Assembly: GCA_963795735.1 (NCBI GenBank)
Contig: CAWCIU010000008.1
Coordinates: 1,751,836 to 1,815,835, forward strand
From: an uncultured Acidobacteriota bacterium
GTDB taxonomy: Bacteria; Acidobacteriota; Thermoanaerobaculia; Multivoradales; UBA5704
Reading direction: 5' to 3'
DNA: 64,000 bases
Part shown: piece by piece, positions 410 through 54,132 of the stretch
Position numbering within the stretch: the first letter of the stretch is position 1
How the letters are laid out: each line of letters starts with the position of its first letter
Translations under genes and position numbers: made by a program
Notes under the pieces: generated by a model
The model's database searches: none
What the model was told of the DNA's origin: nothing
The model's input: the letters and a program-made list of their open reading frames with translations, nothing else

Positions 410-3400
410 ATGCCCCGTAATGCCTTGGCCCCCGTCGTCTTCCCTCCCGGCTCCACCCTCGGTCCCCTGCTCGAGGAGCTGCGCCTGGACGCCCGGCTCG
501 GCCCGCAGCTCCTCTACTCCACGCACCTGCCCGGCAGCGAGGCGCGGTACGGCGAGCTCGATCCGCCGCTCCCGGAGCCGCTCTCCCGCGCCTTGGGCCG
601 CGGGCTGGGCCATGGAAGCTCGCCGCGCCTGTGGACTCACCAGACGGAGGGGATCGCGGCCGTGCGGCGGGGAGAAAACGTGCTGGTCACCACCCCCACG
701 GCCTCCGGCAAGTCGCTGGTCTTCCAGGTCCCTCCCCTGGAGGAGGCGGTCCGCGGGGGACCGGGGCATGGCCTGTTCCTCTTCCCGCTCAAGGCGCTGG
801 GGCAGGACCAGCGGGGGAAGTTCCTCCGCCTGGCCGCGGAGGCGGGGATCCCGCCGGAGGCCGCCGGGTGCGAGATCTACGACGGCGACACCCCGGCCTC
901 GAAGCGCACCTCGATCCGCAAGAATTTTCCCCGGGTGGTGATCTCCAATCCGGACATGCTCCACCTGGGCGTCCTCGGCCACTGGACGGGGTGGGGGCCG
1001 TTCCTGGCCGACCTGCGCTGGGTGGTGCTCGACGAGCTCCACACCTACCGCGGGATCTTCGGCAGCCACTTCCACCACGTCCTCCAGCGCTTCTTCCGGC
1101 TCTGCCGCTCGGTGGGATCGGACCCGGTGCTGATCGCCTCCTCGGCCACCGCGGCCAACGCCGGGGAGTTCGCCGAGACCCTCACCGGGCGCAAGTTCCA
1201 CTGGATCTCCCAGTCGGGCGCCCCGCGCGAGGACCGCCACCTGCTGCTCTTCCAGCCGGAGGCGAGCCCGTACACCACCGCGCTGCAGCTCTTCGTGCGC
1301 TTCATCAACGCCGGGCTCAAAACGATCGTCTTCACCAAGGCCCGGCGGATCACCGAGCTGCTCTACTCCTGGCTGCGGCGGCAGGAGCCGGCCCTCGCCG
1401 CGCGGGTGGCGAGCTATCGCGCCGGCTTCCTCGCCGAGGAGCGGCGGCGGATCGAGGCCGCCCTCTTCGAGGGGAAGCTCGACGGCGTCATCTCCACCTC
1501 GGCCCTGGAGATGGGGATCGACGTCGGCGGCCTCGACGCCTGCATCCTGGTGGGCTACCCGGGGAGCATGATGGCCACCTGGCAGCGCTCGGGCCGGGTG
1601 GGGCGGGCGGGCCGCGAGTCGATCACCGCCATGGTGGCGATGCCCGACGCCCTCGACCAGTACTTCCTCGATCATCCCGGGCAGTTCCTCGAGCGCCCCT
1701 GCGAGCGGCTGATCGTCGATCCGGTCAACGATCCGGTGTCGCGGGCGCACCTGGTCTGCGCCGCCTCCGAGATGCCGCTCTGCGGCGACGACCGCGCCTA
1801 CCTGGCGCCGCACCAGGCCCGGGTGGAGAAGCTGCTGCGCCAGGGGCACCTGCTCGCCGCCGCCGAGGGGGACGAGATCTTCTCCCTGCGCCGCCGGCCG
1901 CAGCGCCACGTCAACTTGCGGGGGACGGGGGAGACCTTCGCCATCCTCGCCGGCGGCCGGACGATCGGCACGGTGGACGGCGTGCGGGTGCTCCACGAGT
2001 GCCACCCCGGGGCGGTCTACCTCCACGCCGGGCGGCAGTTCCTGGTCGAGGCGCTGGAGCGCGAGGAGCGGCGGGTGCTGGCCGCGGCGGCGGATCTCGA
2101 CTATTTCACCACCCCGCTGACCGAGAAGGAGACCGAGATCCTGGAGGTGCTGGAGGAGAGGAGCGAGGGGCCGCTCCAGGCCTGGCTGGGCCGCCTCAAG
2201 GTCACCGAAAGGGTGGTCGGCTTCGAGCGCAAGCGCATCCACGGTCAGGAGGTGATCGACCAGACGCCGCTCGACCTGCCGCCGGTCGAGTTCGAGACGG
2301 TGGGCCTCTGGTGGGCGGCGCCGCGGGCGGCGGAGGAGACCCTGCGCCGCCGGGGGGAGCACTTCCTGGGCTCCCTCCACGCCTCGGAGCACGCCGGCAT
2401 CTCGCTCTTCCCCATCCTGGCCCTCTGCGACCGCGGCGACATCGGCGGCATCTCCTACCCCCTCCATCCGCAGCTCGGCACCGGCGCCGTCTTCATCTAC
2501 GACGGCCATCCCGGAGGGGTGGGGATCGCCGCCCGCGGCTTCGAGGACCTCGCCGACCTGCTGGGGCGGATCGAGGCGCTGATCGCCGGCTGCCCCTGCG
2601 AGACCGGCTGCCCCTCCTGCGTGCAGTCCCCCAAGTGCGGCAACGGCAACCGGCCGCTCGACAAGCCGGGCGCGGCCCGGGTGCTGCGGCTGCTGCTCGG
2701 GCGGGAGGAGCCGGCGGTGGCGTGGGGGGAGGCGGTGCGGGTGAGTCTGGTGGTGGCGGAGGAGGCGGAGCCTCTCCCGGACCCTCACCCCCTGGCCCCC
2801 TCTCCCGTCCCCTCCCACCCTCCCTCGCCGGGAGAGGGGGAAACGGAAGGCTCTCTCGCAGTCGAGAATCTCCCCGGCCAGCGCCACGCCAGCCTGCGGA
2901 GCGCCCCTGCCACCTCGTTCGAGCCCCTCCAGATCGGGTCGGCTCTCCTGCCGTCGTCTCCATTCCCCCTCGCCCGGGGAGGGAGGGCGGGAGGGGACGG
3001 GAGAGGGGGTCAGGGGGTGAGGGTCCGGGAGGGAGAGCCGCGCACGATCCTCTTCGACCTCGAGACCCTGCGCTCCGCCGCCGACGTGGGGGGCTGGCAC
3101 AAGGCCCACCGCATGGGGATCGCCGTCGGGGTGGTCTGCCATCTGGAGGAGGGGCGCTTCGAGGTATATCCCGAGCTCCGGGTGCGCGACCTGGTGGAGG
3201 CCCTGCGCGGCGCCTCCCTGGTGATCGGCTACAACATCAAGCGCTTCGACTACCTGGTCCTCTCCGGCTACACGGGGGAGGACTTCTCGCGCACCCTGCC
3301 GACGCTCGACCTTCTGGAAGACGTCGCCTCCCGCCTGGGCTTCCGGGTGGGCATGGGCCACCTCGCCCAGGAGACGCTGGGGATCGGGAAGTCCGCCGAC

Positions 3401-11154: not shown

Positions 11155-11279
11155 CGCCGCTCCGTTCTGATACGTCGAAGAGAAACGGCGGCATTGTTGC
11201 AGGGACGGCGGTATCCGCAAGAGGTCCTTCGCCGGGCACTTCCGGGCTACTCCAACCGTCGTTTCGCTGTAAGGAGGGA

Positions 11280-12155: not shown

Positions 12156-12160
12156 CGGGA

Positions 12161-21833: not shown

Positions 21834-21856
21834 AAGTTTCAGCCGCGTTGGTCCCG

Positions 21857-21918
21857 TAGGGTGCGCTGCGCGCACCTTCAACGGCGGTGCCGGTGCGCGC
21901 AGCGCACCCTACGGCGTT
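21857..21918 (+). repeat. 62-bp palindromic element (21-bp perfect stem gtagggtgcgctgcgcgcacc / ggtgcgcgcagcgcaccctac), possible terminator/REP
   Basis: Read directly from the sequence. Lies immediately downstream of fdhD. A second copy is at ~23526-23590. Confidence 0.6.
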
Positions 21919-22877: not shown

Positions 22878-23495
22878 ATGCGCCCCTTCTTCGCCCCCTA
22901 CATCCAGAGCTTCCTGCCGCTCTTCGTGGCGATCAACCCGATGGGGATCATCCCCATCTACCTCAGCGTCACCGAGAACCTCAGCGCGGCCGACCGCCGG
23001 CGGCTGACCCTGCAGGCGATGATCACCGCCGTCGGGCTCTCGGTGCTGATCCTCTTCGCGGGGCAGCTGATCTTTTCGCTCCTCGGCATCACCGTCAACG
23101 ACCTGCGGGTGGGGGGCGGCCTGATCCTGCTGGTGCTCAGCATCTCCAACCTGATCTTCGGCGACTACCGCCGGCGCGATCCGACCGCGGGGGAGGAAGG
23201 GGAGGACCTGGCCTCGGTCGGCATCGTCCCCCTCGGCATCCCGCTGATCGTCGGCCCCGCCGCGATCACCTCGATCCTGGTCTCGCGGGAGGCCTACGGC
23301 TATCTCCCCACCCTGGCCTCGCTGATCGTCAACATGGGGCTGGTGTTCCTGACCCTGGTGGCGAGCCCCTGGGTCGGCCGCGTCACCGGCAGCGCCGGCT
23401 CGCGGGCGATCGCCAAGGTGGCGAGCCTCTTCCTGGCCGCGATCTCGGTCGCGATGATCCGCGCGGGGATCATGGGGATGATCCAGGGGAGGTAG
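22878..23495 (+). CDS. MarC-family (UPF0056) membrane protein
   Basis: LPLFVAINPMGIIPIYLSVT, typical of the MarC family. Six TM helices. Confidence 0.8.
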   Translation: MRPFFAPYIQSFLPLFVAINPMGIIPIYLSVTENLSAADRRRLTLQAMITAVGLSVLILFAGQLIFSLLGITVNDLRVGGGLILLVLSISNLIFGDYRRRDPTAGEEGEDLASVGIVPLGIPLIVGPAAITSILVSREAYGYLPTLASLIVNMGLVFLTLVASPWVGRVTGSAGSRAIAKVASLFLAAISVAMIRAGIMGMIQGR

Positions 23496-23496
23496 G

Positions 23497-23676
23497 CCCT
23501 CACCGGGAGAGGGGAAACGAACCGGCGGAGCCCGTAGGGTGCGCTGTGCGCACCTTTGAGGCCGTCCATGGTGCGCGCAGCGCACCCTACATCGAACATG
23601 GAGCGCAGCGTCCCCCTCCTCTCCCGGTGCGGGAGGGCGGGAGGGGACGGGAGAGGAGGGCCGGGGAGGTGAGGGC
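23497..23676. repeat. MITE-like element: truncated forward unit (23497-23520) and reverse unit (~23611-23676) bracketing a second copy of the 62-bp palindrome (~23526-23590)
   Basis: Sequence identity of the palindrome to 21857-21918, with one U-G-compatible change. The flanks match the dispersed ccctcacc...gggagagg family. Confidence 0.6.
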
Positions 23677-24258
23677 CTACTTCGAAGCCGTCTGCGTCTG
23701 CGCCCGCATCGCGAACGGCTGGCCGCCGTGCAGGTAGCGGTAGGGGTTGACCGCCTCGCCGGAGGGGGCGTAGATGCCGTAGTGCAGGTGGGGAGAGGAG
23801 ACGGCCGCGTTGCCCGAGTTGCCCACGTAGCCGATGATCTCGCCGGCCTCCACCCAGTCGCCGACCGCCTGCGGACCGTAGTCCTCGAGGTGGGCGTAGT
23901 AGAGACGGTAGCCGCCCGGGCCGGTGATCGTCACCACCTGGCCGCCCAGCCCCCGCATCCCCTTGTTCTCGACGAACCCCTCGGTGGCGCTGCGGATCGG
24001 CGTGTTGCGCGGGGCGAAGATGTCGATCCCCTTGTGGTGCCGCACGCCGCCGTCCCGCGCGAAGCCCCAGGTGTTCTGGAGCTGGGAGGAGGTCACGCCG
24101 TCCACCGGGATCGGCAGCGTGCCCGGCAGCCCCTGCTGGAGCAGGGTGGTGTAGCGCGTGTTGTAGCGCACGGCCGCTTCGCGGCAGCCCCCGAGCGAGA
24201 GCGAGAAGAGAACGAGAAGGGCGACGAGACCGAGGGACTGGCGACGAACCATCTCCAC
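23677..24258 (-). CDS. M23-family metallopeptidase (peptidoglycan DD-endopeptidase-like)
   Basis: HKGIDIFAP...HLHYGIYAP motifs. Signal peptide. Confidence 0.8.
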   Translation of the reverse strand: MEMVRRQSLGLVALLVLFSLSLGGCREAAVRYNTRYTTLLQQGLPGTLPIPVDGVTSSQLQNTWGFARDGGVRHHKGIDIFAPRNTPIRSATEGFVENKGMRGLGGQVVTITGPGGYRLYYAHLEDYGPQAVGDWVEAGEIIGYVGNSGNAAVSSPHLHYGIYAPSGEAVNPYRYLHGGQPFAMRAQTQTASK

Positions 24259-30027: not shown

Positions 30028-31179
30028 CTAGACTTTGTTGGCCTTCAGCTCCGCCAAAGCATAATGCGTCCCGCGCCAATCGATGCCGTCGTTCCAGAGA
30101 GTCAGGACCGTCGCCCGCCAGACGATGTAGAGGAAGAGCAGGGTGGCGACGGGGAAGCCGATGCCGTGCCAGCGGCGCACCCCGGCGAGCGGGGCGTTGA
30201 TCCAGCAGAGTGAGACCAGCACCAGCACGCTCGCCAGGTTCAGCCAGCGCGTGGCCCCGGTGGTCACCAGGATCGCCAGGAACGGCCAGACCAGGAGCGC
30301 GAGCTGGATCACCGTCGCCCGCACCACCACCGAGACCCGGTAATCCACCCCGGAGAAGGCGTTCTTCATCAGCCCCTGGATCAGCTCGCGGACCGAGGCG
30401 TACCACTCCACCCGCAGCATCCCCTGGCCGAAGGCGAATTCTTGGCGGCAGCCGCCGGCCTTGAGGATCTTGCCCAGCTTGAGGTCGTCGTCCGGCCGCA
30501 TGGCGATCGTCCGGTGGCCGCCCACGGCGCGGTAGGCGGAGGCGCGGACCAGGTTGAAGGCGCCGATCCCCACGTGGTGGGGGCTCTTCGGGTCCTTCAC
30601 CTTCCAGGGCCGGGTGAACAGGGCGAAGAAGAGGGCGAAGGCGCCGATGAACATCTCGAACAGGGCGCTCGGCCGGTCGATCTCGGGCGAGGCGGTGAGG
30701 TGGTCGAGCCCGTCCGCCGCCATGGCGCCCACCGCCCGCCGCAGCACCGAGGGCGCCATCACCACGTCGGCGTCGGTGAACAGGAGGAATTCCCCCGTCG
30801 CCTTCTCCGCCCCCAGCCAGAGGGCATGGTTCTTCCCCAGCCATCCCGGCGGCAGCTCGCGCACCCGCACCACCCGCAGCCGCGGCTCCGCCGTCGCCAT
30901 GCGCTCGAGGATCTCCCCCGTGCGATCGGTGGAGCGGTCCTCCACCACCTCGATCTCCAGGTTGTCGTAGTCGAGAGCGAGGACCGAGCGCAGCGCCTCC
31001 TCCAGGTTCCGCTCCTCGTTGCGGGCGGGGATGACGATCGACACCCGCGGCAGGGGGCCCGCCAGCGGCGGCAGGTCCCTCAGGAACCGGATCGACCGGT
31101 TGCCGCGCAGGATCTCGAACGCGGTTGCCAGATGGGCGAGCAGGGTCGCCGCGGCGAGGAGGAGGAGGAACGCGGCCAT
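30028..31179 (-). CDS. family 2 glycosyltransferase
   Basis: SIVIPARNEERNL...DYDNLEIEVVEDRSTD...LFTDAD: GT2 DxD-type signatures. TM segments. Confidence 0.8.
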   Translation of the reverse strand: MAAFLLLLAAATLLAHLATAFEILRGNRSIRFLRDLPPLAGPLPRVSIVIPARNEERNLEEALRSVLALDYDNLEIEVVEDRSTDRTGEILERMATAEPRLRVVRVRELPPGWLGKNHALWLGAEKATGEFLLFTDADVVMAPSVLRRAVGAMAADGLDHLTASPEIDRPSALFEMFIGAFALFFALFTRPWKVKDPKSPHHVGIGAFNLVRASAYRAVGGHRTIAMRPDDDLKLGKILKAGGCRQEFAFGQGMLRVEWYASVRELIQGLMKNAFSGVDYRVSVVVRATVIQLALLVWPFLAILVTTGATRWLNLASVLVLVSLCWINAPLAGVRRWHGIGFPVATLLFLYIVWRATVLTLWNDGIDWRGTHYALAELKANKV

Positions 31180-31288
31180 GGGGCGGTTATCCTATCGTGC
31201 TGGTCCCGCGAAGCTCCCGATCCCGGAGATCGGACGTCGTTTCCGATCCTGGAGATCCGGTCTTCGGAACGGTGCCGGCGCCGCCGGG

Positions 31289-31355
31289 CCCCTCACCTCC
31301 CCGGCCCTCCTCTCCCACCTCCCCCCCTTCCGCCGGGAGAGGAGGGAGTGGTTAG
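31289..31355 (+). repeat. MITE/RPE-like repeat unit, forward copy (ccctcacctccccggccctcctctcccacctcccccccttccgccgggagaggagggagtggttag)
   Basis: Seen directly. Contains the internal hairpin ctcctctccc/gggagaggag. Confidence 0.8.
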
Positions 31356-31358
31356 TCT

Positions 31359-31748
31359 CTAGGAGGAATCGCGGTCGTGGTAAAGGCAGCCCAGGGCGTC
31401 GAGGAGGGCCGCGAGGTCATTCTGGACCTGGTCGTTGGTGAAGCGAAGGACCCGGTAGCCGAGAGCCTCGAGGTTCGCATCCCGATTGACGTCATGCCTG
31501 ATCTGGCGTTCTTCTGTATGAATGCCGCCGTCGATCTCCAGGACAAGCCTCATCTCGTGGCAGAGGAAGTCGGCGACGTAGGGTCCCACGGGAGCCTGCC
31601 GGCGGAATTTCAGGCCGAGGAACCGGCGGTCCCGCAGGTGGTCCCAAAGCATCTCCTCGGCCTGGGTGGAGGCGCGCCGGAGCCCCTTCGCGCGAAGCAC
31701 GGCACCAGGATTGGAAACCCGCACCGCAAAAGTATCCCACAAGCGCAA
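31359..31748 (-). CDS. DUF559 endonuclease-domain protein (Vsr-like fold), cargo of a MITE-like inverted-repeat element
   Basis: MLWDHLRDRRFLGLKFRRQAPVGPYVADFLCHEMRLVLEIDGGIH...LEALGYRVLRFTNDQV matches the DUF559 family. The gene ends 4 bp from repeat A and starts (TTG/GTG) ~7 bp from repeat B. Confidence 0.8.
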   Translation of the reverse strand: MRLWDTFAVRVSNPGAVLRAKGLRRASTQAEEMLWDHLRDRRFLGLKFRRQAPVGPYVADFLCHEMRLVLEIDGGIHTEERQIRHDVNRDANLEALGYRVLRFTNDQVQNDLAALLDALGCLYHDRDSS

Positions 31749-31754
31749 TACCCA

Positions 31755-31821
31755 CTAACCACTCCCTCCTCTCCCGGCGGAAGGGGGGGAGGTGGGAGAG
31801 GAGGGCCGGGGAGGTGAGGGG
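31755..31821 (-). repeat. MITE/RPE-like repeat unit, reverse copy, inverted partner of 31289-31355
   Basis: Reverse complement of the forward unit. Confidence 0.8.
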
Positions 31822-32039
31822 CCCGGCGGCACCGGCGTCGCTCCGGCTTCCTCCCATCTCGGGATCGGAGAAGACCGGCCGGAGAAGACGCGGTCGGAGA
31901 AGACGTGGCCGAGAACACCCGGCCGGAGAAGACCCGGCCAGAGAACCCGGCCGGAGAACACCTGGGAGGTTTCGCGAGCAAAGGCTGATCCTGCCGGCGT
32001 CAGCCCTGCCGGAACGGGGACCGTGCCGGCCGCTCCGGG

Positions 32040-32106
32040 CCCCTCACTCCCCCAGCCCCTCTCTCCCACCTCCCCCCCTTCCGCCGGGAGAGAGGGGAGT
32101 GGTTAG
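32040..32106 (+). repeat. MITE/RPE-like repeat unit, solo forward copy
   Basis: ccctcactcccccagcccctctctcccacctccccccttccgccgggagagaggggagtggttag, just downstream of the ABC permease gene. Confidence 0.75.
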
Positions 32107-32134
32107 AGGGGACTCGAGAAGCGAGGGGCCTCCC

Positions 32135-33205
32135 TCACCGCCAGCGGAAGATCTTCAGCGCCACCGCGAAGCTCACGAGTCCCCAGGCGGCCACGATGGC
32201 GAGCTGTGTGGCAACTCCGGCGAGGCCCCGGCCCTCGGTCATCACCCCGCGCAGGGCCTGGTTGAGGGCGGTCAGCGGCAGCAGATTGATCAGCGGCTGG
32301 ACGGCGTCGGGGAAGCGGTCGGAGGAGAAGAAGACTCCCGAGAGGAGCCACATCGGCATCAGGGTGACGTTGGCGAGGCCGCTCGCTCCCTCGACCGTGG
32401 TCACCCGCGAGGCGATCAGCAGGCCCATGCCGCAGAAGGCCATGGCGCCGAGCAGGCAGATGGCGAGGAACAGCGGGATCGATCCCCGCACCGCGACGCC
32501 GAACAGCCCCCAGCCGATCCCCACCAGGATGAGGATCTCCGGCAGCAGGAAGAGCAGCCGGCCGAGGATCTGCGCCAGCAGGTAGTGGCTGCGGCGCATC
32601 GGCGTCGCCACCAGGCGCTTGAGGATCCGCCGGTTGCGCGCCGTGGTCACCGAGAAGGCGATGCTCCAGATGCCGGTGCCCATCAGGTTCATCCCCAGCA
32701 GGCCGGGGATCAGGAAGTCGATGTAGCGCGAGCCCTTCTCGGTCACCTTCTCGGAGCGCACCTCCACCGGGTCCCGCCGCCCGGCCGCCCGCTGCAGGGC
32801 GTCGCCGGCCTCCAGCCGCGCGATGCGCGAGTCGGGGCGGGTCTCGTCGAAGTGGAAGACCGCCGGCGGCCCCGCCTCCACCAGCAGCGAGATGCGGCCG
32901 GTGCGCAGCGCCTCGCGGCCCGGCACGGGAGCGTAGCGGCGGACGAGGAGCCCGGGAGCGTGCGACAGCGCGGCCATCGCTCTCCCCGCGGCCGGATCGG
33001 TTTCGTTCACCGCCACCACGCCGACCGGGATCTGGTCCGGCCCCTTGGCGCGGAAGGCGAACCCCAGGGCGATCGCCAGCACCATCGGAAAGGCGAAGAC
33101 CCAGAAGACGGCCTCCGGCTCGCGCAGGAACTCCTTCATCTTGGCGGCCGTCAGCTCGAGCAGGGGGGAGTAGCGGCGGCTCATCGTCGGTCCATGGTCA
33201 GTCAA
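32135..33205 (-). CDS. ABC-2 type transporter permease
   Basis: Six TM helices. ABC-2 family pattern. Operonic with the ATPase (4-bp gap). Confidence 0.8.
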   Translation of the reverse strand: MTDHGPTMSRRYSPLLELTAAKMKEFLREPEAVFWVFAFPMVLAIALGFAFRAKGPDQIPVGVVAVNETDPAAGRAMAALSHAPGLLVRRYAPVPGREALRTGRISLLVEAGPPAVFHFDETRPDSRIARLEAGDALQRAAGRRDPVEVRSEKVTEKGSRYIDFLIPGLLGMNLMGTGIWSIAFSVTTARNRRILKRLVATPMRRSHYLLAQILGRLLFLLPEILILVGIGWGLFGVAVRGSIPLFLAICLLGAMAFCGMGLLIASRVTTVEGASGLANVTLMPMWLLSGVFFSSDRFPDAVQPLINLLPLTALNQALRGVMTEGRGLAGVATQLAIVAAWGLVSFAVALKIFRWR

Positions 33206-34182: not shown

Positions 34183-34554
34183 TCAAGTGGGCTTGTAGAT
34201 CGCGAGATAAGCGGCCGCGCCGCCCAGCAGGGGGAGCAGCCACCAGAGCAGCGTGCCGAGCTGCGGCGACCGGCGGACCATCACGATGATACCGCCGAGC
34301 ACCAGCCAGATCAGCAGCTTGAGCCAGACCCAGAGCGGCAGGTGCCCCGAATGCATCAGGCCCAGCCGGGCGACCGTCCCGAAGCCGGCCACCAGGACGA
34401 CCAGCAGCGCGATCCCATGCGTCATGCCGGCCAGCTTGCGGCCGTTCCCCCGCTCGATCCCCTCCCGCGAGGCGAGCATCAGCGCCCCCAGCGAGGTGAA
34501 GACGAACAACACCCCGAGCACGTGGATCACTTTGAACGCGGCATAGCTGATCAT
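34183..34554 (-). CDS. small integral membrane protein (4 TM), unknown function
   Basis: MISYAAFKVIHVLGVLFVFTSLGALML... is hydrophobic. The ORF-track upstream extension was rejected. Confidence 0.4.
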   Translation of the reverse strand: MISYAAFKVIHVLGVLFVFTSLGALMLASREGIERGNGRKLAGMTHGIALLVVLVAGFGTVARLGLMHSGHLPLWVWLKLLIWLVLGGIIVMVRRSPQLGTLLWWLLPLLGGAAAYLAIYKPT

Positions 34555-34677
34555 GGCTCCCCTCCCCTCCAGGGCAGAAAGAATGGAGGGATTGTATCCC
34601 GAAGGCGGGGCGGGGCTCCTGGAACGCGGGGTCATCTTGAGGTCGCAATTTGCGACCTCAAGATCGGCGAGATCCCC

Positions 34678-35778: not shown

Positions 35779-35848
35779 CGGGGGTGGGGCGGCGTTGGGA
35801 CCGGCCGGGCGGGATCGTAGCCAAACGGCGGCGGGGGGGCAAGGGCGG

Positions 35849-36016
35849 CCCTCATCACCCCGGCCCTCTTCTCCCACCTCCCCCCCTTCCGCCGGGAGAA
35901 GAGGGAGTGGTTAGCTCAAGAAAAGAAAAAGAAAGAAGAAGCGGTTGGTTTTAGCCCTCTCTCTCCCGGCGGTCGGGGGGGAGGCTGGGAGAGAGAGGGT
36001 TGGGAGAGTGAGGGCC
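35849..36016. repeat. Empty MITE/RPE-like element: forward unit 35849-35914 and reverse unit ~35955-36016 separated by ~40 bp A-rich spacer
   Basis: Both units match the family consensus. The spacer is aaaagaaaaagaaagaagaagcggttggttttag. Confidence 0.75.
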
Positions 36017-36114
36017 GCCCCGGAGGGGCGCCGGCGACGTTGCCTGTAAGACGTTACCAGTAAGACGTGCCTGTACGACGTGCCTGGAAGAGGCCTGCCT
36101 TCCCAGGCCCCCCC

Positions 36115-38063: not shown

Positions 38064-38165
38064 CGATCGTTTCCCGCCGGCGGTCCCCCAGGGAGGGGGC
38101 CAGCGCCGCGAAGCTTATCCGACCGGAAGACGCCGGCGCCGTGTCCGCCGGCGCGCCTTCCGCCA

Positions 38166-38360
38166 AGGTTGGCGCAGAGCGCGTGAAGCTTGGCGCGGAG
38201 TGCGCGAAGCTTGGCGGGGAACGCGTGAAGGTTCGCGCGGAAGGCGTGAAGCTTGGCGCAGAGCACGCGAAGCTTGGCGCAGACCGCGTGAAGCTTGACG
38301 TGGAGCGCGTGAAGCTTGGCGCAGAGCGCGTGAAGGTTGGCGCGCTCTGCGCCAAAGCGA
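38166..38360. repeat. Tandem array of ~9 x 21-bp units (consensus ttGGCGCAGAGCGCGTGAAGC, each containing AAGCTT), ending in a perfect palindrome ggcgcgctctgcgcc
   Basis: Seen directly: ggcgcagagcgcgtgaagctt ggcgcggagtgcgcgaagctt ggcggggaacgcgtgaaggtt ... Period is 21 bp, i.e. two helical turns. Confidence 0.8.
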
Positions 38361-39527: not shown

Positions 39528-41597
39528 TTGCACATCTTCATGACTTCACGCCAGTCAACATCTAGTCTCCAGAGCCGAGAGATACTGCTTCTTGAGGATA
39601 ACTCCGGGGCGTCGGAGAGGCGACATCAGGTCGGCGTCTCTCGTCAAATCGTTCACTCTACCATTACCATCAGGGTGCACCGAATAAGCGGTACATCTTC
39701 GCAACTAGCTGCGAGCAGGACCTACAAAGTCGGAACCTTATCCGGCGAGCGCAATGGGCGCATCCAACTCGCTATGCGTCTCCTTGATCGGGCTAAGCCT
39801 AAGAAGGGCTGCGTCGTCGCAGCTGGGACATCCTATGGCTCTGCGGCGACCTTTTTGAGGGCGCTGTCCAATATTGGTCTGTCCTTCGTTGTTCAGGTGA
39901 GGCCCAGCACATTGCTTGACGTGCTCGGAACGAAGGCTAAACTAAGCACGGCCGGGGAGCTACTGGCTGGAGGCCAATGGGAGGCGGTGACGTTGCCACT
40001 GCTGGACGGGACAAAAGTGGACTATGTAGCTGCTAAGCTGGCAGATGTCGACCTAACCATAGGTCCCGCCAAGCTCTTTGCCGCTCGTGTCGGTGGTGTA
40101 GAGGGCGCTCAGCGGAGTACGATCATCGGCCTCTCTTCCTTTGACGCGAGCATAAGTGAGCTTGTACAGATCATCGGCTACACACGATGGATAAGGCCGA
40201 TCTCCCGGAGACAGGACAGAGCGGCACGGGGGGTAGCCGGACGTGCGGAGCCAGAAGGTAATGCAGCAACTCTGAGAGCCCGCGCCAATATCACATCAGC
40301 TCGCCAGCAGGATGATCGTGCCAGAGAGGGGAATATGTACGTCCTCGGGTACTCCCCAAGAGGAGTTCTGCAATCCTGTGGGTCAACTCTTAACGTCGCA
40401 GAGTTGTTTGCGGGCGCCGGTGGTATGGGGCTTGGCTTTCTCTTGGCAACCGGAGGAGAGGGACGCTACCGTCTCGTATATTCCGGAGAAGTGAATCCAA
40501 TCTACGTCCAGACGCTTCGAACGAACCATGAAGCATTACCGGGCGTCGTGGGCGGAGCCGGTGAAGCGCTTATTCCCGAGTATACGGAGGCGGCGGATCT
40601 GCGACGAGAGGAAACCCTGGCTAGCGTCAAAGAGGTCGGGTGCCAAAAGGGTGGCATTCACGTGCTCATTGGTGGCCCCCCATGCCAAGGATTTTCCATG
40701 GCTAATCGCAATTCTTGGCACGGTCGCAACCCGCACAATCGCCTCGTGGATGTATTTTTTAAATACGTCGAAGAGCTCCGCCCAAAAGTCTTCCTAATGG
40801 AGAACGTGCAGGGGATCCTCTGGACTCCTAAGGGAGGTAGGCCGGTCTCGGTTGTTGACGTCATAGAACGTCGTATGCGAGCGGCAGGCTACATAGTATT
40901 TCCAAAGCTACTCGACGCAGTATGGTATGGCGTGCCTCAGCATAGGACTCGCTTCTTTCTAATGGGACTCCACCGTGATCTTGGATATCGCTCCGACAGC
41001 TTTGGAGAATGGGGGCCGTTTCCTGTTCCGACGCATGGCGGAGAGTCCTCGCCGTGGGTAACGACAAGGGAAGCACTTGCCGATCTTCCCCGCATAGGCA
41101 ATGGTGCGTCGGTGGAGGATCTCGCCTATATTGACCCTTCGCCTGCTGCGCTAAAACAGAATCCATTCCTCAATTACATCAGGGATGGGGCTGAGCGTGG
41201 TTTGGTCTTTGACCACGTAACCTCTAGGCATGCTGAATATGTAATCGACCGCTATCGTAAAATACCGCCTGGCGGTAATTGGGAAAGCATCCGCGAAGAA
41301 CTATCTAACTACGCCGATGTTTCGCGCACCCACAGCAATATTTACCGTCGCCTGCGATGGGACGAACCATCTATTACGATTGGACATTATCGCAAGAGTA
41401 TGCTCGTGCACCCTAGTCAGCATCGAGGTCTCTCCCTTCGCGAGGCGGCGCGGCTGCAATCGTTTCCCGATTGGTTTCACTTCGCGGGAACAGTAAGCGG
41501 GCGTGATGGAGGAATTGTTCATAAACAACAGCAACTCGCTAATGCTGTCTGCCCGCTGGTAACGAAAGCTGTTGCAGAGTTCATCCTGCATCTATGA
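39528..41597 (+). CDS. DNA (cytosine-5)-methyltransferase with ~280-aa N-terminal extension of unknown function; DruM-like
   Basis: Motif I AELFAGAGGMGLGF, motif IV PPCQGFSMANR, ENV motif FLMENVQG, later QSFPDWFHF. Lower GC than flanking DNA. Confidence 0.8.
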   Translation: MHIFMTSRQSTSSLQSREILLLEDNSGASERRHQVGVSRQIVHSTITIRVHRISGTSSQLAASRTYKVGTLSGERNGRIQLAMRLLDRAKPKKGCVVAAGTSYGSAATFLRALSNIGLSFVVQVRPSTLLDVLGTKAKLSTAGELLAGGQWEAVTLPLLDGTKVDYVAAKLADVDLTIGPAKLFAARVGGVEGAQRSTIIGLSSFDASISELVQIIGYTRWIRPISRRQDRAARGVAGRAEPEGNAATLRARANITSARQQDDRAREGNMYVLGYSPRGVLQSCGSTLNVAELFAGAGGMGLGFLLATGGEGRYRLVYSGEVNPIYVQTLRTNHEALPGVVGGAGEALIPEYTEAADLRREETLASVKEVGCQKGGIHVLIGGPPCQGFSMANRNSWHGRNPHNRLVDVFFKYVEELRPKVFLMENVQGILWTPKGGRPVSVVDVIERRMRAAGYIVFPKLLDAVWYGVPQHRTRFFLMGLHRDLGYRSDSFGEWGPFPVPTHGGESSPWVTTREALADLPRIGNGASVEDLAYIDPSPAALKQNPFLNYIRDGAERGLVFDHVTSRHAEYVIDRYRKIPPGGNWESIREELSNYADVSRTHSNIYRRLRWDEPSITIGHYRKSMLVHPSQHRGLSLREAARLQSFPDWFHFAGTVSGRDGGIVHKQQQLANAVCPLVTKAVAEFILHL

Positions 41598-41598
41598 C

Positions 41599-43596
41599 AT
41601 GAGCTCCTTCGAAAGGTATACCCTCTGGAACTATATGTTGGCGGAGCAATGCCTGCTAACGGGTTCTAATCAAGGCGCTGTACTGCTCACGGTAACGCCG
41701 CGGATCCTCGCTGCTGCGTTGGATGAGGCTAAAGAAGGATTGCAATCACCTGAGGAGGCTGAGGCGGACTTCGTTACAGCTGTAACATTTGTTTATAAGG
41801 AACATGTGCTGCGAAGGCCAGAAAGGTTGCGAGCTTTAAAGTCGTCGGATAAGACAGAGGTTCCCTTAAGTGTCGGGTTCCTCGCTCTTTCCGTTCTCGC
41901 TGCCTACCGTATGCGTACTGATGGTGAGCGCACAGGACGGGCCTATTATGCGAGGCTTGGCGAGATGGTCGGCTGTGGGCTAGTTGGTAATTTTCCCCTA
42001 GGGTTTGATCCAGATGCATTCGTGGAATTATGGGATGAGCTGGCGCAATGGCTCGAAACTCAGTACGGCCGACGGCTTGTCCTTCCTGTGGCTGGGGGTG
42101 TGCAAAAGTTCGTAGCCTACCCTCTTGCACATGTTCCATTGCGACGAGTGGACATTGATCGACTACCGCAGTTCTTTGATTCCTACGGTTACGAGCCAGG
42201 GATGCGCGCTCCGTTGGATTCGCTTGCCTACGATCTCTATAAAGGAGCCGGTCCTTGGCGACATCTAACGAGAGTAGGTCAACGTGCTCTGGAAGATCCG
42301 GGCCGTCGTCCTTTCGTGATTCGGCAAGTCGCCCATGAACTCGAGCACTGGGATGGCTGTCGAACTGACTCATACGGCACGCGGATAGCCACCATCGCAT
42401 TGTGGATGGACATCCGTCGACGGCGGGTTCAACTCTCCTTGCTCGCCAGACGGCCCCAGGGCTTTCCTGAAGAAATTGAGAATGAAGATCTTGTTTTTGT
42501 TTCAAGCCAAGAGGGATGGTACGAGCCAATCCTGCTCGGGCCCGATGACGGTGCTCTTCTCAGTGAGGGTCTTCGAATAGACGCCTGTGCATCCGGCAGT
42601 CGCTGTCTTCTCCAGCTTCGTGGATTCACTGTCGTTCCGTTAACGCCCTCTGAAGAGTATGCGGGTCTTGTTTCGGATTCCGTCCTGCGCGCGGGCACGC
42701 GATGTGCGGTGCTCTGTGCGGAATCGATGATTGAGGATGTTTCTCGATACCTTGAGTTGCTGAACAACGGGCCCGTTTATCCTCGCCGCGATGAGAACCT
42801 ACCTAAAGGCTGGTGCCTGTTCACCGATGTCGAGCTGTCTTCCGATGCCGCTCCGCCGGTTGGCCTCGAGCGTCTCCGGGCCGAGGCCAGTATTGCTCTG
42901 GTCCCTGTGGGAGGGCTGCGCCTCGGGCGTCGTTGGACTTGGCTGGAAGGTGCATCTGCGTGCCTCAGGATCGTCGGCGCTCGTCAAGGGCTAGAAGTAC
43001 GCGTCGATGGGCAAGAGGCGAAACTGGACAGCGAAGGACATCTGCCTGCCGCTCTCTTGAGGGCCGAAGGAACGCATGTTGTTGAGGTCGGTAACCGGTT
43101 GAGACAACTGATCGCTGTACTACCTGGCGCCGTGAATCCGGAGTGCAGGTCTTGGGAATGCAACGAGCCAATTCTCAGCCGGATTCCCGTAGCAGTACCT
43201 GAGGGACATTGGGCTGTTATTGGGTCCGTACCTGGCGAACTCGCAACCGTATTTGCGTCTTCCGAAGGTGCGCTCATCCGGCCAGACTTCTTTGCCCGGT
43301 GGGCAGTGAAGATAGGTACTCGTCGTAGTGCAACCGCGCTTCATCTCCATGACGTGGGTGCCTCTTTAATGGCCGAGTGGGATAGGGATGACGTAACAAG
43401 GATTCAAGCCCCGTGTTTACGCGCGGGGTTTACTTCGGCTCAGTCGTGGGCGGAAATAATCTATCAGGCCGGAATTCGCAGACCGCATCTCGTGTGTACA
43501 TTAAAGTGCCAAGTCCAGGAGCTTGCAGCTGAATGGCGACGCTTAATGGAGAAGGCACGCTCTGTGAAGCGGGAGATAAAGAGGGGGCGCCGGTGA
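41599..43596 (+). CDS. hypothetical protein (665 aa), DruF-like position in Druantia type II-like operon
   Basis: The ATG lies 2 nt after the MTase stop. No recognisable motifs. Confidence 0.5.
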   Translation: MSSFERYTLWNYMLAEQCLLTGSNQGAVLLTVTPRILAAALDEAKEGLQSPEEAEADFVTAVTFVYKEHVLRRPERLRALKSSDKTEVPLSVGFLALSVLAAYRMRTDGERTGRAYYARLGEMVGCGLVGNFPLGFDPDAFVELWDELAQWLETQYGRRLVLPVAGGVQKFVAYPLAHVPLRRVDIDRLPQFFDSYGYEPGMRAPLDSLAYDLYKGAGPWRHLTRVGQRALEDPGRRPFVIRQVAHELEHWDGCRTDSYGTRIATIALWMDIRRRRVQLSLLARRPQGFPEEIENEDLVFVSSQEGWYEPILLGPDDGALLSEGLRIDACASGSRCLLQLRGFTVVPLTPSEEYAGLVSDSVLRAGTRCAVLCAESMIEDVSRYLELLNNGPVYPRRDENLPKGWCLFTDVELSSDAAPPVGLERLRAEASIALVPVGGLRLGRRWTWLEGASACLRIVGARQGLEVRVDGQEAKLDSEGHLPAALLRAEGTHVVEVGNRLRQLIAVLPGAVNPECRSWECNEPILSRIPVAVPEGHWAVIGSVPGELATVFASSEGALIRPDFFARWAVKIGTRRSATALHLHDVGASLMAEWDRDDVTRIQAPCLRAGFTSAQSWAEIIYQAGIRRPHLVCTLKCQVQELAAEWRRLMEKARSVKREIKRGRR

Positions 43597-44489
43597 AGTG
43601 GGACTTGCTGCTTGAGTGGATGACACACATGGGCTCGGGCCACTGGGGTGCATTCCGCGAGGCCGTGGCGGAGCTTGCCGACCCCGATGATCCTGAGATG
43701 CCGGTGCTGGCCCAGAAGCTTCGTATTGCTCTTTCGGACCTTGGCCACGTGGATTTTTTCGTTGATGGGCCCCGACGCTGGCAGGTACTGCGGCCGGCCT
43801 TAGTTGGCTTGGCTGGTAGCAACGCGCACCTGTTCGTAGGCGGTCGTACCCGGCATCTTGCCGAGAAGTTGACATCGAGCCTGCTGGAAGGTGGAGCGTC
43901 GGTATCCATCACAAAAATCAATCCCGGGCTTGCACGTATCTGCCTGGAGGGCCCACAAGAGATTCTGCGCGCGACCGCCAAAGACCTCGGGCTTGAATAT
44001 GTGCCTGTAGCCTCAGCTCTGCTTGCTTCCCGACTTCTGCCGCTGCGGCATACGATCGAGTGGGCTCCTGCTCGTCCAGAGCCGATCAACTGGGCCGTAC
44101 GATCGTGGTCGTTTGAGAGCAAAGCGTGGATTCATGGCAGGTTCGCGCGTACTGCACTAGAGTACACTAACCGGCATGGGGCAAGTAGATACATGATCGA
44201 TCTTGGCCATGCCGGCCTTCGGGACTTCAACAAGCGCGTATCCATTTACGGGGCGGCTTTTTTGAAGGGTAGGCGGATTATCCGCTACTGCTTCGAGAGA
44301 GAACGCCTTCTGGTACCCCGTTGGGCTCCACTCCCGGAGCCTTATTCCCGTGTGGCGTGCTTGGCTGGCGGGCAACTCGCCACCGTTCAGGAAGATGATC
44401 TTGTCTTTGAATCCGTCACCCCCAATATAGCGTCGATGCTCTTGATTGCACTAGGACAGGGGTATCCAAAGCACGGAGATGTTTTATGA
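43593..44489 (+). CDS. hypothetical protein (~298 aa), DruG-like position
   Basis: GTG start overlapping the upstream stop (GTGA) with RBS agaggggg. The stop overlaps the next ATG (ATGA). Confidence 0.5.
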   Translation: MKWDLLLEWMTHMGSGHWGAFREAVAELADPDDPEMPVLAQKLRIALSDLGHVDFFVDGPRRWQVLRPALVGLAGSNAHLFVGGRTRHLAEKLTSSLLEGGASVSITKINPGLARICLEGPQEILRATAKDLGLEYVPVASALLASRLLPLRHTIEWAPARPEPINWAVRSWSFESKAWIHGRFARTALEYTNRHGASRYMIDLGHAGLRDFNKRVSIYGAAFLKGRRIIRYCFERERLLVPRWAPLPEPYSRVACLAGGQLATVQEDDLVFESVTPNIASMLLIALGQGYPKHGDVL

Positions 44490-47400
44490 ATGATCCATTT
44501 TTTACATTCCACCAGCTTCGGGAGACCTACCTTCGGTATCTGGACAGCCCTTTTCGCCTCAGGTATAAGGCACTGATGGAGGAGCGTCGCACTCTCCTTG
44601 ATCGGGATCGACAGCTCTACCGAGAACCTCTCTTTGAGCCAGTCGTGCCGTATGAGTCATCGAAATTGACCATGCGAGGTGCGTGTTCGCATCTCGGGGT
44701 TTCATCTGATGTCGCAGAGTATCTGGATACCGGTGGCCTCTTTCCGTCGAGTCGCGAACTCTTCCAGCATCAATTGGATGCTTGGGAATCTTCGCGCAAG
44801 GGTGATGCCGTGATCGTGACGACGGGTACAGGGTCCGGGAAGACGGAGTGCTATCTGCTCCCAGTGTTCGCCTACCTCGTTGAGGAATCGACAAGATGGG
44901 GTGCGCCATCGGCACGCTCGCCTCACTATCTCTGGTGGTCTCACCCACGGCAGCAACGTATCCCGCAGCGTGCCCACGACACTGGTCGAGCTAAGGCTCT
45001 TCGCGCACTTTTTTTGTACCCGCTTAATGCGCTTATCGAGGATCAGCTAGGGCGGATACGCACGGCTTGTGATGGTCCCAATGGACGGCGGTGGCTGACG
45101 AACTGCCGGGCCGGAAACCGTTTTTGGTTCGGGCGCTATACGGGTGCCACGCCTGTTTCGGGGCCCCAAACCAACGCTAAGCGACAAGAGTTGAAGCGGC
45201 GCCTGCAAGACATAGAAGATGAGTGGGATCGTGCCCGACTTTCCGCTGCCCGATCCGGTAACGATGACATTCTCTCCTATTTCCAAGACCCTGATGGAGC
45301 GGAAATGTGGTCTCGCTGGGATATGCAGGAGGATCCGCCGGACATTCTCATCACTAACTATAGCATGCTTAACATTATGTTAATGAGGAGCCTGGAGAGT
45401 GACGTATTCGACCAGACGAAGGCGTGGCTCGCGCAGGATCGCGACAGGAATGTGTTTCACCTCGTTGTGGATGAGCTCCATACCTATCGAGGCACACCCG
45501 GAACTGAAGTAGGCTATCTGCTTCGCGCATTGCTGCACCGCCTCGGCCTAACTCCGGACTCGCCGCAGCTTCGAATTATTGCGACAAGTGCTTCGATTGA
45601 TGCAAATGATCCAGGAAGTACCGAATATTTGGAGGAATTTTTTGGGAGAGACCCATTGACCTTCAAGATCATCGAAGGGAAGCGGACTGCCTTCTCAAGC
45701 GGAAGCGGCACGCGAAGTGCTCAGCCCTTCGTTGTCTTCGGACAGGGGCTCGAGGAAGGAACTCTCGCTACTGCCGTCGCACGCCTCGCGGCTGATACAG
45801 GTGTTATACCGCGAGAGTCGAGTCCCGAGCGTCGGCTGGCCGAGGTACTCAGCACCACCGGTGTTATGGAGCTGGTGCGTTGCGAAGGAGAGCAGGGACC
45901 ATTTACGAGCACGCGCCTTGGAGAGTCCCTCTTCGGGACAGATCCCGATGCAGGGGTAGCTACCCATGCCATAATTAGGGGGCTGATCCTCGCGCGGGAG
46001 GTACGGGGTGGGTTAGAAGTCGCTCCTCTTCCCCTCAGAGTACATTACTTTTTTCATAATGCTGGGCGGCTTTGGGTCTGCGTTAATCCACAGTGCTCTG
46101 GACGTACAGGGACCACGTCACCGGGTGCCGAGGTGCCTCCGGTTGGTAGACTCTATGTTGAGCCGCGGCCGCGCTGCGAAAACTGTAATGCCCGCGTACT
46201 CGAGCTTCTATATTGTCAGCCGTGTGGAGAGGTTTTTGTTGGTGGCTATCGTGCCGAAGATTGCAACATCAATAATGCATGGTTTCTATCGCCTGACTTT
46301 CCCGACCTGGAGCATGTCCCAGACCGGTCGACCTCACCAAAGAGGATTCACATTGAGTACCTTGTTTTCTGGCCCGCAAACGGGCGACCATTGGTGCGCA
46401 GTAATCATGCGGGCCCATCTTGGGGGTGGCAGCAAGACGGGCAGGCAGGCTATCAGTGGCGCCCGGCCTCGCTCGACATGGTGGAAGGCCGCCTCTCTCT
46501 AAGCCCGCCCCGGCGCTCCACTAGCCCATCCGAGATAGCAGGTTATGCCTTCATTGCTCCTTTGGCTCATGCCGATGCTTTTCCTGCAAAGTGTCCCCAC
46601 TGTGCGGCAAACTGGGGCAGGCGCCTTGGTGTTAAGTCTCCGATCCGAGATCTCGGATCTGGTTTTCAACGCATCATGCAGATTCTCGGCGACGCACTCG
46701 TACGTGAGATTCCTGAAGGACCGGGCCGGAAGCTGGTTCTTTTCTCAGATTCCCGACTTGATGCAGCGAAGCTCTCAACGGGGATCAAGCTCGCACATTA
46801 CAGGGATACTCTCCGCCAGATCGCATTTGAGACTCTTGGTACGGCGGGCACTGCGGCAAAGCGACTTCATCAGGAGAATCAGGAGATATCTCAGCAGGCG
46901 ATTGAGCTGTACGCCTTGCTACAGAAGCGGGAGGCGGAAGGCCTCTCCGACCGAGAGAATGCACGCCGGAAAGAGCTGATGAGCGCCCTTCCTGGAAGCA
47001 TCGTTGGGGATCTTACAAAGTACGCAGTGACAGGTGGAACTCCTCCCAATGTTCTCGTGCCTCCGGTGCCTCCTGGGGCTCTCATATTCATGCCCTTCCG
47101 ACAGCTCATCGATCTTGTACGTACGCAATTGTTCTCCAAGGGTATAAACCCGGGCGGCCCGTTGCCATCAGTCGCGACATACCAGCCTCAGCGAAGTGGA
47201 CCAAAAGCCTTGTGGACAAATCTTCTCGACTGGTCGACAGCTCAGCCAAACTATCAGGCCGGTCTGCAGCCTCTGGAGCGGAACCTTCAAGCGAGCATCG
47301 AGGTCTCTCTTCGCGAGAACGTTATATCCAGCGTTCTCTTTGCATCAGCGGCAAGAGACTTCGAGTCTCTGGGGCTCGGCTACTTGTGGACCAGCAACGT

Positions 47401-53549: not shown

Positions 53550-53641
53550 GGCGGGGATCGTAGCAGGGGAGGGTGGGGGCGGGCGACCGATACCCCGATG
53601 CAGGACGCTTCATGATCCCGGACGGCTCCGTGCCGCCGCGG

Positions 53642-53796
53642 CCCTCATCACCCCGGCCCTCTTCTCCCAGCCTCCCCCCCTTCCGCCGGGAGAAGGGGGA
53701 GTGGTTAGTCTGAAAAAAGACCAGAGCTTTTTGAGCCCCCTCTCTCCCGGCGGCGGGGGGGAGGTGGGAGAGAGGGGGTTGGGGGAGTGAGGGGCC
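53642..53796. repeat. Empty MITE/RPE-like element: forward unit 53642-53708, reverse unit ~53736-53796, 27-bp spacer
   Basis: ccctcatcaccccggccctcttctcccagcctcccccccttccgccgggagaagggggagtggttag ... ccccctctctcccggcggcggggggggaggtgggagagagggggttgggggagtgaggggcc. Confidence 0.75.
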
Positions 53797-54132
53797 TCAC
53801 GCCGTCAGGTCGTCGACCGCCGCCTCGGGGGCGTTCTTCTTGACCGATTCGAGCCCCTTCTCCATGGATTCGGGGGAGGAGTAGGTCTCGCTCTGGCCGA
53901 TCACCTGGCCGTTGTAGGCCTTGAGAACGAAGTAGGCTTCGCCGTTCTTGGCCGTCTTGCGCTCGTAGCGCTCGGCGATCGGGGCGCTGCGCTTGACCGA
54001 TTCGATGCCGCCCAGGGCGCCGCGCTTCTCGGTATAGAGCTCGCTCGCCAGGATCACCTCTCCATTGTCCGCCTTGAGATGGAACAGGTACTGCTTGTCG
54101 GTGGACATCTTCAGCTCGAACTTTCCAGCCAT
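53797..54132 (-). CDS. YegP/DUF1508 (UPF0339) family protein
   Basis: Two tandem ~50-aa repeats: KFELKMSTDKQYLFHLKADNGEVILASELYTEKRGALGGIESVK and AYFVLKAYNGQVIGQSETYSSPESMEKGLESVK. Confidence 0.75.
   Translation of the reverse strand: MAGKFELKMSTDKQYLFHLKADNGEVILASELYTEKRGALGGIESVKRSAPIAERYERKTAKNGEAYFVLKAYNGQVIGQSETYSSPESMEKGLESVKKNAPEAAVDDLTA

Follow-up and report, generated by a model that had tools for sequence, protein, structure and literature searches.

What are the short hairpin repeats scattered through a 64-kb segment of an acidobacterial genome, and is the one small gene lodged between two of them a passenger or a partner? The segment, hereafter the window, comprises 64,000 nucleotides (nt) of contig CAWCIU010000008.1 (positions 1,751,836 to 1,815,835; assembly GCA_963795735.1) from an uncultured member of the Acidobacteriota. 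Its GC content is about 70%, and the best matches of its proteins lie in metagenome-assembled genomes (MAGs) of Thermoanaerobaculia (Acidobacteriota). We show, at the level of sequence, that the repeats belong to the BoxC/PIT/"TM" class of intrastrand-triplex-motif repeats, of which they are a Thermoanaerobaculia-specific branch, and that the gene, which encodes a DUF559 nuclease, is specifically and anciently associated with BoxC-type modules. The further reading, that repeat doublets and nuclease form a pairing like that of repetitive extragenic palindromic (REP) doublets forming hairpins (REPINs) with REP-associated tyrosine transposases (RAYTs), stands in our estimation at about an even chance.

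A nhmmer profile built from five copies recovered ten full copies in the window (E-values from 2.6e-23 to 0.03). With one internally deleted copy and one possible remnant, these substantiate the family that a first-pass annotation had described as dispersed repeats resembling miniature inverted-repeat transposable elements (MITEs) and Rickettsia palindromic elements (RPEs). A 32-nt core of the repeat matches four times with no more than 3 mismatches, against 0.00 expected in 100 shuffles. Counting the deleted copy and the possible remnant, the window copies form six convergent pairs (P1 to P6), one of which encloses a 129-aa open reading frame (ORF), as anticipated by the earlier description of inverted pairs that are either empty or carry cargo.

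The basic module is about 65 nt long. In it, a head (CCCTCAYC…) is separated by a loop of 2-4 nt from a pyrimidine arm of 12-13 nt, and a C-rich loop of 18-23 nt links this arm to its purine complement. Two modules in convergent orientation, heads outward and separated by a short A-rich spacer, make up a doublet of about 160 nt. Across genomes, module A reads GGCCCTCATCACCCCGG-CCCTCTTCTCCC-(19-nt C-rich loop)-GGGAGAAGAGGG-AGWGGTTWG; an A/G-rich spacer separates it from module B, which is inverted and has another type of stem (CCCCCTCTCTCCC…GGGAGAGAGGGGG-TT-GGGGGAGTGAGGG) and beyond which a small CGCCCC-GAA-GGGGCG hairpin is often found. The stem proposed in the first-pass annotation (CTCYTCTCCC/GGGAGARGAG) coincides with the predicted hairpin. 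A perfect stem of at least 8 base-pairs (bp) is present in 219 of 229 copies, and in an alignment of equal-length stems, on which pairs were counted, all cells pair (100%) and compensatory, double-sided changes occur at 3 of 12 pairs, a result reached by none of 500 shuffles. On its own, a module is predicted to form the expected hairpin of 12 bp, though the z-scores are modest; the P5 doublet, taken as single-stranded DNA, folds to -66 kcal/mol (z=-8.4).

What the earlier description had missed is that the unit is more than a hairpin, since its head co-varies with the stem arm. The head block (CCCTCAYC.CCCC) mirrors the pyrimidine arm, except that T may become A. Scored by script (folding tools model Watson-Crick pairs only), the contiguous mirror run between head and arm averages 12.0 nt, that is, the whole arm; exchanging heads among stem types lowers the mean to 6.4, and shuffling lowers it to 3.4. 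In at least five stem types, each head corresponds to its own arm throughout the 11-13 nt. Two different stem types, 3-5 positions apart, are combined in 64 of 73 doublets, each stem being perfect in itself. Constraint therefore acts on the module (hairpin plus mirror block) and not on the long doublet hairpin. Searching the whole window against Rfam gave no match at the gathering threshold and, in E-value mode, only sub-threshold miRNA-like hairpin matches and no family. Scanning 31150-32200 for sigma70 promoters and intrinsic terminators revealed nothing associated with the modules, and a reading of the repeats as terminators was dropped on that account.

The three-block layout, with a mirror head that co-varies with the stem arm, is the ground on which we assign the repeats to the BoxC/PIT/TM class. 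BoxC repeats have reportedly been known since the 1990s (Bachellier), and PIT elements are said to stem from work by Hoyne and Maher in 2000. In E. coli, the "BoxC" repeat was found anew as the PIT (potential intrastrand triplex) element and later as TMECO, with the motif CCCTCTCCC-TGT-GGGAGAGGG-CCG-GGGTGAGGG (Holder 2015, PMC4666352). According to the same report, repeats of this class also occur in more than 260 other bacterial genomes, and the E. coli motif, which is intergenic, sometimes tandem-inverted, and found at loci that are rearrangement hotspots, forms an intrastrand triplex in vitro, as shown for isolated oligonucleotides. The report gives no mobility gene, no function and no associated gene for these repeats (PMC4666352).

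Read on the G-rich strand, the acidobacterial modules share with this class the three-block layout in near-identical words (CCCTCTCCC - loop - GGGAGAGGG - CCGG/TTA - GGGGTGAGGG). The pyrimidine block and its complementary purine block form a hairpin, and the third block is mirror-symmetric to the purine arm and hence triplex-competent (G.G:C and A/T.A:T triads). The repeats are G/C-rich, mostly intergenic, multi-copy and often tandem-inverted, as the class consensus has it, and they are tied to local rearrangement with no transposase nearby. They depart from the class in having arms of 12-13 nt instead of 9 nt, an extra inner tail (AGTGGTTAG) and, above all, a sequence-conserved hairpin loop of 18-23 nt, compared with 3-5 nt in TMECO and 1-6 nt in ITxF. 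Third blocks face outward in the doublets described here and inward in the E. coli pairs; moreover, one acidobacterial pair is translated and another has a DUF559 gene embedded in it. The repeat class is an already known one; its long-loop acidobacterial variant appears to be new.

The "cargo" that the first-pass annotation left unspecified is a nuclease gene recurrently linked to such repeats, and the only cargo found between modules in the window. It occupies the spacer position of the pair at 31265-31845, where a 129-aa DUF559 (Vsr-like PD-(D/E)XK) protein is encoded on the minus strand at 31359..31748 (Pfam PF04480, E=2.2e-35, residues 18-118). The left arm of this cassette (31265..31356, plus strand) comprises the module at 31282-31357 (E=1.1e-22) and some 17 nt of extended inverted repeat; the right arm (31754..31845, minus strand) coincides largely with the module at 31751-31828 (E=5.1e-23). 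The two 92-nt arms are 96% complementary. The protein matches PDB entry 3HRL (E=8.6e-20), in an alignment that conserves the VADF / LEIDGGIH core; the core motif of acidic and His residues (…D-F…E-x-D-G-x-x-H…) is intact and conserved in relatives, and the protein also matches Pfam MTES_1575 and gives no Y1_Tnp match. The gene is intact and under purifying selection (dN/dS 0.12-0.44 against seven relatives). In one of the compared loci (L116), which is colinear with window positions 30032-31356 (92%) and 31754-31857 (96%), the stretch enclosed by the arms matches in the opposite orientation (95%): at one and the same locus, two close relatives differ by an inversion of the DUF559 segment.

DUF559/YcjD is very widespread among bacteria, and its function is not known. 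A metagenome scan with the window protein yielded 80 loci with GC contents of 42-74%. All 14 metagenomic homologues that are at least 60% identical have an acidobacterial repeat adjacent to them, and 10 of them are flanked by copies to either side (plus upstream, minus downstream), the others showing an intervening contig end or a one-sided copy. In the locus of a close relative (L001, DUF559 92% identical), the arm-DUF559-arm arrangement, with copies on both sides, lies in a different gene context; in L002 the neighbours of the gene are an empty doublet and two more modules. The association extends to more distant proteins. Many homologues of 45-59% identity are flanked by inverted repeats scoring 32-92 bits, compared with at most 22 bits in shifted controls, and these repeats are canonical short-loop BoxC hairpins plus GGGGTGAGGG, such as CTCCCTCTCCCCTGGGAGAGGGCCGGGGTGAGGGTC or CCCTCACCCTAACCCTCTCCCAAAGGGAGAGGG. 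Counted with a sequence-specific BoxC-type pattern over the 80 loci, hairpins number 3.03/kb up to 300 nt from DUF559 and 0.08/kb at distances above 600 nt; at least one such hairpin lies within 300 nt in 69 of the 80 loci, including loci of 42-51% GC. DUF559 is the only recurring cargo between modules, other distant plus/minus pairs holding host genes or an insertion sequence (IS).

The same neighbourhood is found in E. coli, where YcjD is 43% identical to the window protein, TMECO #9 lies about 170 nt downstream from ycjD, and a BoxC-like hairpin sits on the ycjD stop codon. Between TMECO #9 and that stop codon, E. coli K-12 (NC_000913, 1351200-1351430) also carries a partial duplicate of the ycjD 3′ end (…gaatattctccagcaccgtctcc…), which looks like the remnant of an earlier cassette arrangement. 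Two published observations fit a link between DUF559 and the repeats: DUF559 genes are enriched 14-fold among predicted targets of programmed inversion (PMC9881135), and in E. coli phylogroups A/B1/C ycjD is found in place of the eefRABCD operon (PMC12817139). Our literature search found no paper linking DUF559 or YcjD to BoxC, triplex or inverted repeats, and as far as that search shows the partnership appears to be new.

The repeats themselves are far more widespread than the window, as a genome-wide census made clear. An exact-pattern scan of one genome per species, all of whose counts are lower bounds, gave more than 113 matching stretches among the matches listed, nearly all in about 25 Thermoanaerobaculia/Acidobacteriota MAGs and spread in each over many contigs; the most repeat-rich MAG has at least 17 loci among the same listed matches. 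Four matches outside these groups (L020, L051, L063 and L078) were set aside as chance hits because they contain no match to the profile. The profile located 219 copies in 115 loci. Of 91 pairs of adjacent copies, 87 are convergent; 3 pairs are divergent and 1 is tandem. The spacer has a median length of about 30 nt and is longest, at 393 nt, in the two pairs that bear DUF559. The repeat pattern has no match in 2.9 M viral contigs, which argues against a link to phages. With more than 100 loci in other MAGs and copies whose presence varies between related genomes, the repeats are not a local duplication, the one outcome that the first-pass annotation had named as fatal to its view of a mobile family.

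Comparison of syntenic loci gives a picture of turnover. In L019, which lacks the cassette, an unrelated 1-kb insert takes its place. Two doublets of this locus stand at places that are free of doublets in the window, and a neighbouring gene in inverted orientation abuts one of them: this small membrane-protein gene (L019 3064-3634, syntenic with window 34183-34635) runs opposite to its window counterpart, with its stop codon against the doublet. L019 also has a further ORF, of 189 aa, between two of its doublets. At the site orthologous to 53634-53799, L008 carries a doublet of a different subtype. In L002, an IS with a DDE_Tnp_1 transposase (IS at 10525-12380, transposase at 10702-12258) is found between a plus and a minus module beside the DUF559 gene, which suggests that doublets are insertion hotspots.

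Presence varies inside a gene as well. The P1 pair truly lies within an ORF, as the first-pass annotation had it, the remaining window copies being intergenic on a gene map drawn from GC3 and Pfam matches. It consists of a left module at 2779..2846 (plus strand; nhmmer E=7e-5, hairpin -14.1 kcal/mol), of a variant-loop subtype with inner tail GAAACG, and an inverted right module at 2959..3026 (minus strand) that is 94% complementary to 2774-2842. Both are translated in frame within a 1054-aa ORF, in the variable linker of a native fusion of an MrfA-like MZB-helicase with an RNase_H_2 (exonuclease) domain. The repeat-encoded peptides are present in the closest homologues (P0121 and P0123) and absent from three others of 72-74% identity (P0125-P0127), which keep the segment between the two modules.

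The other window pairs lie near gene ends to varying degrees. In P2, the left copy (about 23496..23520, plus strand), visible by eye as the fusion of a head GGCCCTCACC to GGGAGAGGGGAAACG, derives from the 2779 subtype by internal deletion and abuts the stop codon TAG of a MarC gene (23493-23495); the right module (23613..23678, minus strand; nhmmer E=1.2e-8) overlaps the stop codon of an M23 peptidase gene (23677-24258, minus strand). The variant loop that the first-pass annotation saw in the copies at 2782/2961 and 23611 is real (87% identity). P4 has its left module at 32034..32109 (plus strand, E=4.6e-21), followed by a possible degenerate partner remnant at 32110..32130 (minus strand, …GCGAGGGGCC), recognised from its sequence and from a weak reverse-strand nhmmer match (32130-32068, E=0.0014); its end at 32130 is 5 nt from the stop codon of an ABC-2 gene (32135-32137). 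Empty doublets are P5, with a type A module at 35842..35916 (plus strand; stem CCCTCTTCTCCC, tail AGTGGTTAG; E=2.6e-23) and a type B module at 35956..36021 (minus strand; stem CCCTCTCTCTCCC; E=2.7e-8), and P6, with type A at 53634..53712 (plus strand, E=2.4e-22) and type B at 53737..53799 (minus strand, E=6.4e-8), the latter overlapping the stop codon of a DUF1508 gene (53797-54132, minus strand). The earlier statement that copies abut gene ends is only partly true, because contact or near-contact with a stop codon is seen at four copy ends (stop codons 23493-23495, 23677-23679, 32135-32137 and 53797-53799), and about 85-100 nt separate other copies (those at 31282, 35842/36021 and 53634) from the closest end of a gene.

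Further repeats occur in and around the doublets. A second, unrelated 59-nt hairpin repeat (GTAGGGTGCGCTGYGCGCACC…GGTGCGCGCAGCGCACCCTAC) is present at 21856-21914 and at 23532-23590, with 83% complementarity between the sites; the copy at 23532-23590 sits in the spacer of the 23496/23613 doublet. Tandem repeats are found between the DUF559 cassette and the 32034 module (CGGAGAAGACCCGGC, 6.7 copies, 31866-31962) and directly outside the 35842/35956 doublet (a 13-nt unit, 4.1 copies, 36036-36091), and in other MAGs, too, the sequence just outside doublets contains words like "gaagac / ggcgtcag". Farther from the modules, a low-GC island (39528-50020, 55-58%) encodes a Druantia-like anti-phage system: DruM cytosine methylase (39528-41597), DruF (41572-43596), DruL (43533-44489) and DruE, an 1844-aa helicase (44486-50020). 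At 38165-38343 there are 8.5 copies of a 21-nt tandem unit (AAGCTTGGCGCAGAGCGCGTG, 81% matches), which also form an imperfect inverted repeat, and just past the island, at 51330-51690, two inverted arrays of 21-nt units (GCCCTCTGGTTTGACGGCTCC / AAACCAAGGGGCCCGGCCGGA) have an iteron-like look. Two tandem paralogues, at 4157-6232 (691 aa) and 6322-8349 (675 aa), are 73-81% identical in nucleotide sequence at an offset of 2117-2126 nt.

How might repeat and nuclease work together? In the pairing that we propose, the DUF559 protein would recognise and nick a non-B structure (hairpin, triplex or cruciform) extruded by the modules, and recombinational repair of the nick would then lead to homogenisation and spread of copies, inversion of the cassette and local rearrangements. 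The short doublets would be non-autonomous partners of DUF559, as REPINs are to a single-copy RAYT gene. The more far-reaching proposal, that the small stand-alone (YcjD-like) DUF559 protein is the missing protein partner of BoxC/PIT/triplex repeats generally, a doublet-nested, structure-specific nuclease driving their spread, homogenisation, inversion and rearrangement, is one that we advance tentatively, holding it somewhat less probable than not.

A number of observations weigh against this partnership. Some doublets occupy orthologous sites, those of L010 4801-4960 and L043 5372-5520 lying in two different MAGs with flanks that are 84-96% identical, and L008 offers a further case; since they are shared between species, these doublets may be old and largely static. 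No target-site duplication was detected at 81 doublets (offsets 0-15 nt, k = 2-6), the counts not exceeding those of swapped-flank controls, and when the joined flanks of 87 doublets were compared with all compared loci, no clean empty site was found, only orthologous filled sites. A PD-(D/E)XK nuclease cannot by itself religate DNA; DUF559 would therefore not be a self-sufficient transposase, and the colonisation of new sites is not explained by it. We know of no activity of a small stand-alone DUF559 protein on such DNA, and a literature search for biochemical activity of this kind returned none. The gene lies beside a doublet, not inside it, in some loci (L002, for example). A DUF559 gene, degenerate at that, was found within 8 kb in only 1 of 113 randomly matched repeat loci, so the link rests on the DUF559 side; such a low rate is expected if there are many non-coding copies per gene. 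Finally, the E. coli triplex was not detected in vivo, and PIT elements are without promoter or terminator activity (PMC4666352).

Other explanations can be set beside this one. The DUF559 gene could be a homing-type selfish nuclease gene that lands in pre-existing modules or doublets, the modules themselves spreading by an unrelated process. We consider this unlikely, if far from negligible. The gene sits exactly at the doublet spacer position, the cassette is found in different contexts (window and L001) and is absent from the syntenic L019, and an IS has likewise landed inside the L002 doublet, as would be the case if doublets were insertion hotspots. A Vsr-like fold is, besides, reported for a homing endonuclease, I-Bth0305I (PMC3239194), to whose structure (3R3P) the match is weak and not significant (E=0.48). 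Efficient homing, however, would fill more than one of the six window doublets; in many loci the gene is beside intact doublets and not within them; and homing leaves unexplained why modules are near-identical across genomes in which the synonymous sites of DUF559 are saturated. Less probable still, and to our mind improbable, is that the modules are non-mobile structural elements of benefit to the host (3′ untranslated region stabilisers, pause sites of replication or transcription, or protein-binding sites) that selection maintains at gene ends, with DUF559 a repair enzyme that is by chance co-located with them or regulated by them. Selection on structure is indeed indicated by the strong three-way covariation, and the copies that abut stop codons of convergent genes and the doublets conserved at orthologous sites are what such a role would lead one to see. 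It sits poorly, however, with a pair translated in frame in a protein linker and absent from orthologues of 72-74% identity, and with the variation in presence, subtype and orientation between syntenic loci. No terminator-like or sigma70-promoter-like signal accompanies the modules in 31150-32200, the Rfam searches yielded no family beyond sub-threshold hairpin noise, and the E. coli PIT elements lack both activities, as noted above (PMC4666352).

The explanation implied by the MITE label, a classical element that a DDE or other transposase would mobilise in trans from another place in the genome, with DUF559 an unrelated passenger, is the most directly contradicted, and we regard it as very improbable. 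The terminal inverted arms, small size, many copies and coexistence of empty and cargo-bearing forms are all MITE-like. Yet target-site duplications are lacking at offsets 0-15 nt, the arms of most doublets are different module types instead of copies of one terminal inverted repeat, no transposase recurs between the arms, where the sole recurrent cargo is DUF559, and the association with DUF559 holds across phyla.

The REPIN/RAYT-like pairing, for its part, would bear on several matters. The tight association across phyla gives BoxC-type repeats and DUF559 each a testable role, predicts a new class of genomic replicators made of a nuclease plus repeats, and accounts for the appearance of DUF559 genes among seemingly invertible ones. 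In annotation, it draws attention to peptides of repeat origin in real proteins and to inversions driven by repeats.

Beyond the BoxC/PIT/TM class, the elements resemble several known systems. The "MITE/RPE-like" label is partly right as a description of behaviour and wrong as a statement of family membership. Like RPEs, the palindromic repeat can be found in frame in a genuine protein gene, where it adds a peptide in a tolerant region (2779/2959). It is probably not a member of the RPE family: the host is an acidobacterium, the sequence matches the BoxC consensus, and most copies are intergenic, one in-ORF pair having been seen. Like MITEs, the doublets are multi-copy, of similar size, with inverted termini and with short as well as cargo-bearing versions; unlike MITEs, they have heterotypic arms, no target-site duplication and no transposase with the same termini, the sole DDE transposase seen being that of the IS inserted in the L002 doublet. 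A more distant parallel is I-Bth0305I (EDxHD family, PDB 3R3P), which is reported (PMC3239194) to be likewise a small nuclease of the Vsr-like PD-(D/E)XK kind and the product of a selfish element. That enzyme is reportedly encoded by an intron in a phage gene and is not known to be associated with a repeat family, and, at E=0.48, its match to the window protein falls short of significance.

There is also a likeness to the REPIN-RAYT system. Here as there, hairpin repeats are arranged in inverted doublets (87 of 91 convergent) that can form a long hairpin as single-stranded DNA, hundreds of non-coding copies are set against one or a few repeat-flanked protein genes, and there is no target-site duplication. 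The differences lie in the repeat, which has a triplex-type third block, and in the protein: the flanked gene encodes a DUF559 PD-(D/E)XK nuclease, for which no cleavage or religation chemistry is known, and not a RAYT of the HUH/Y1 (IS200/IS605-like) kind. If the wider partnership with BoxC/PIT/triplex repeats is real, it would constitute a second system of the REPIN-RAYT type, independent of the first in its mechanism and based on the PD-(D/E)XK fold.

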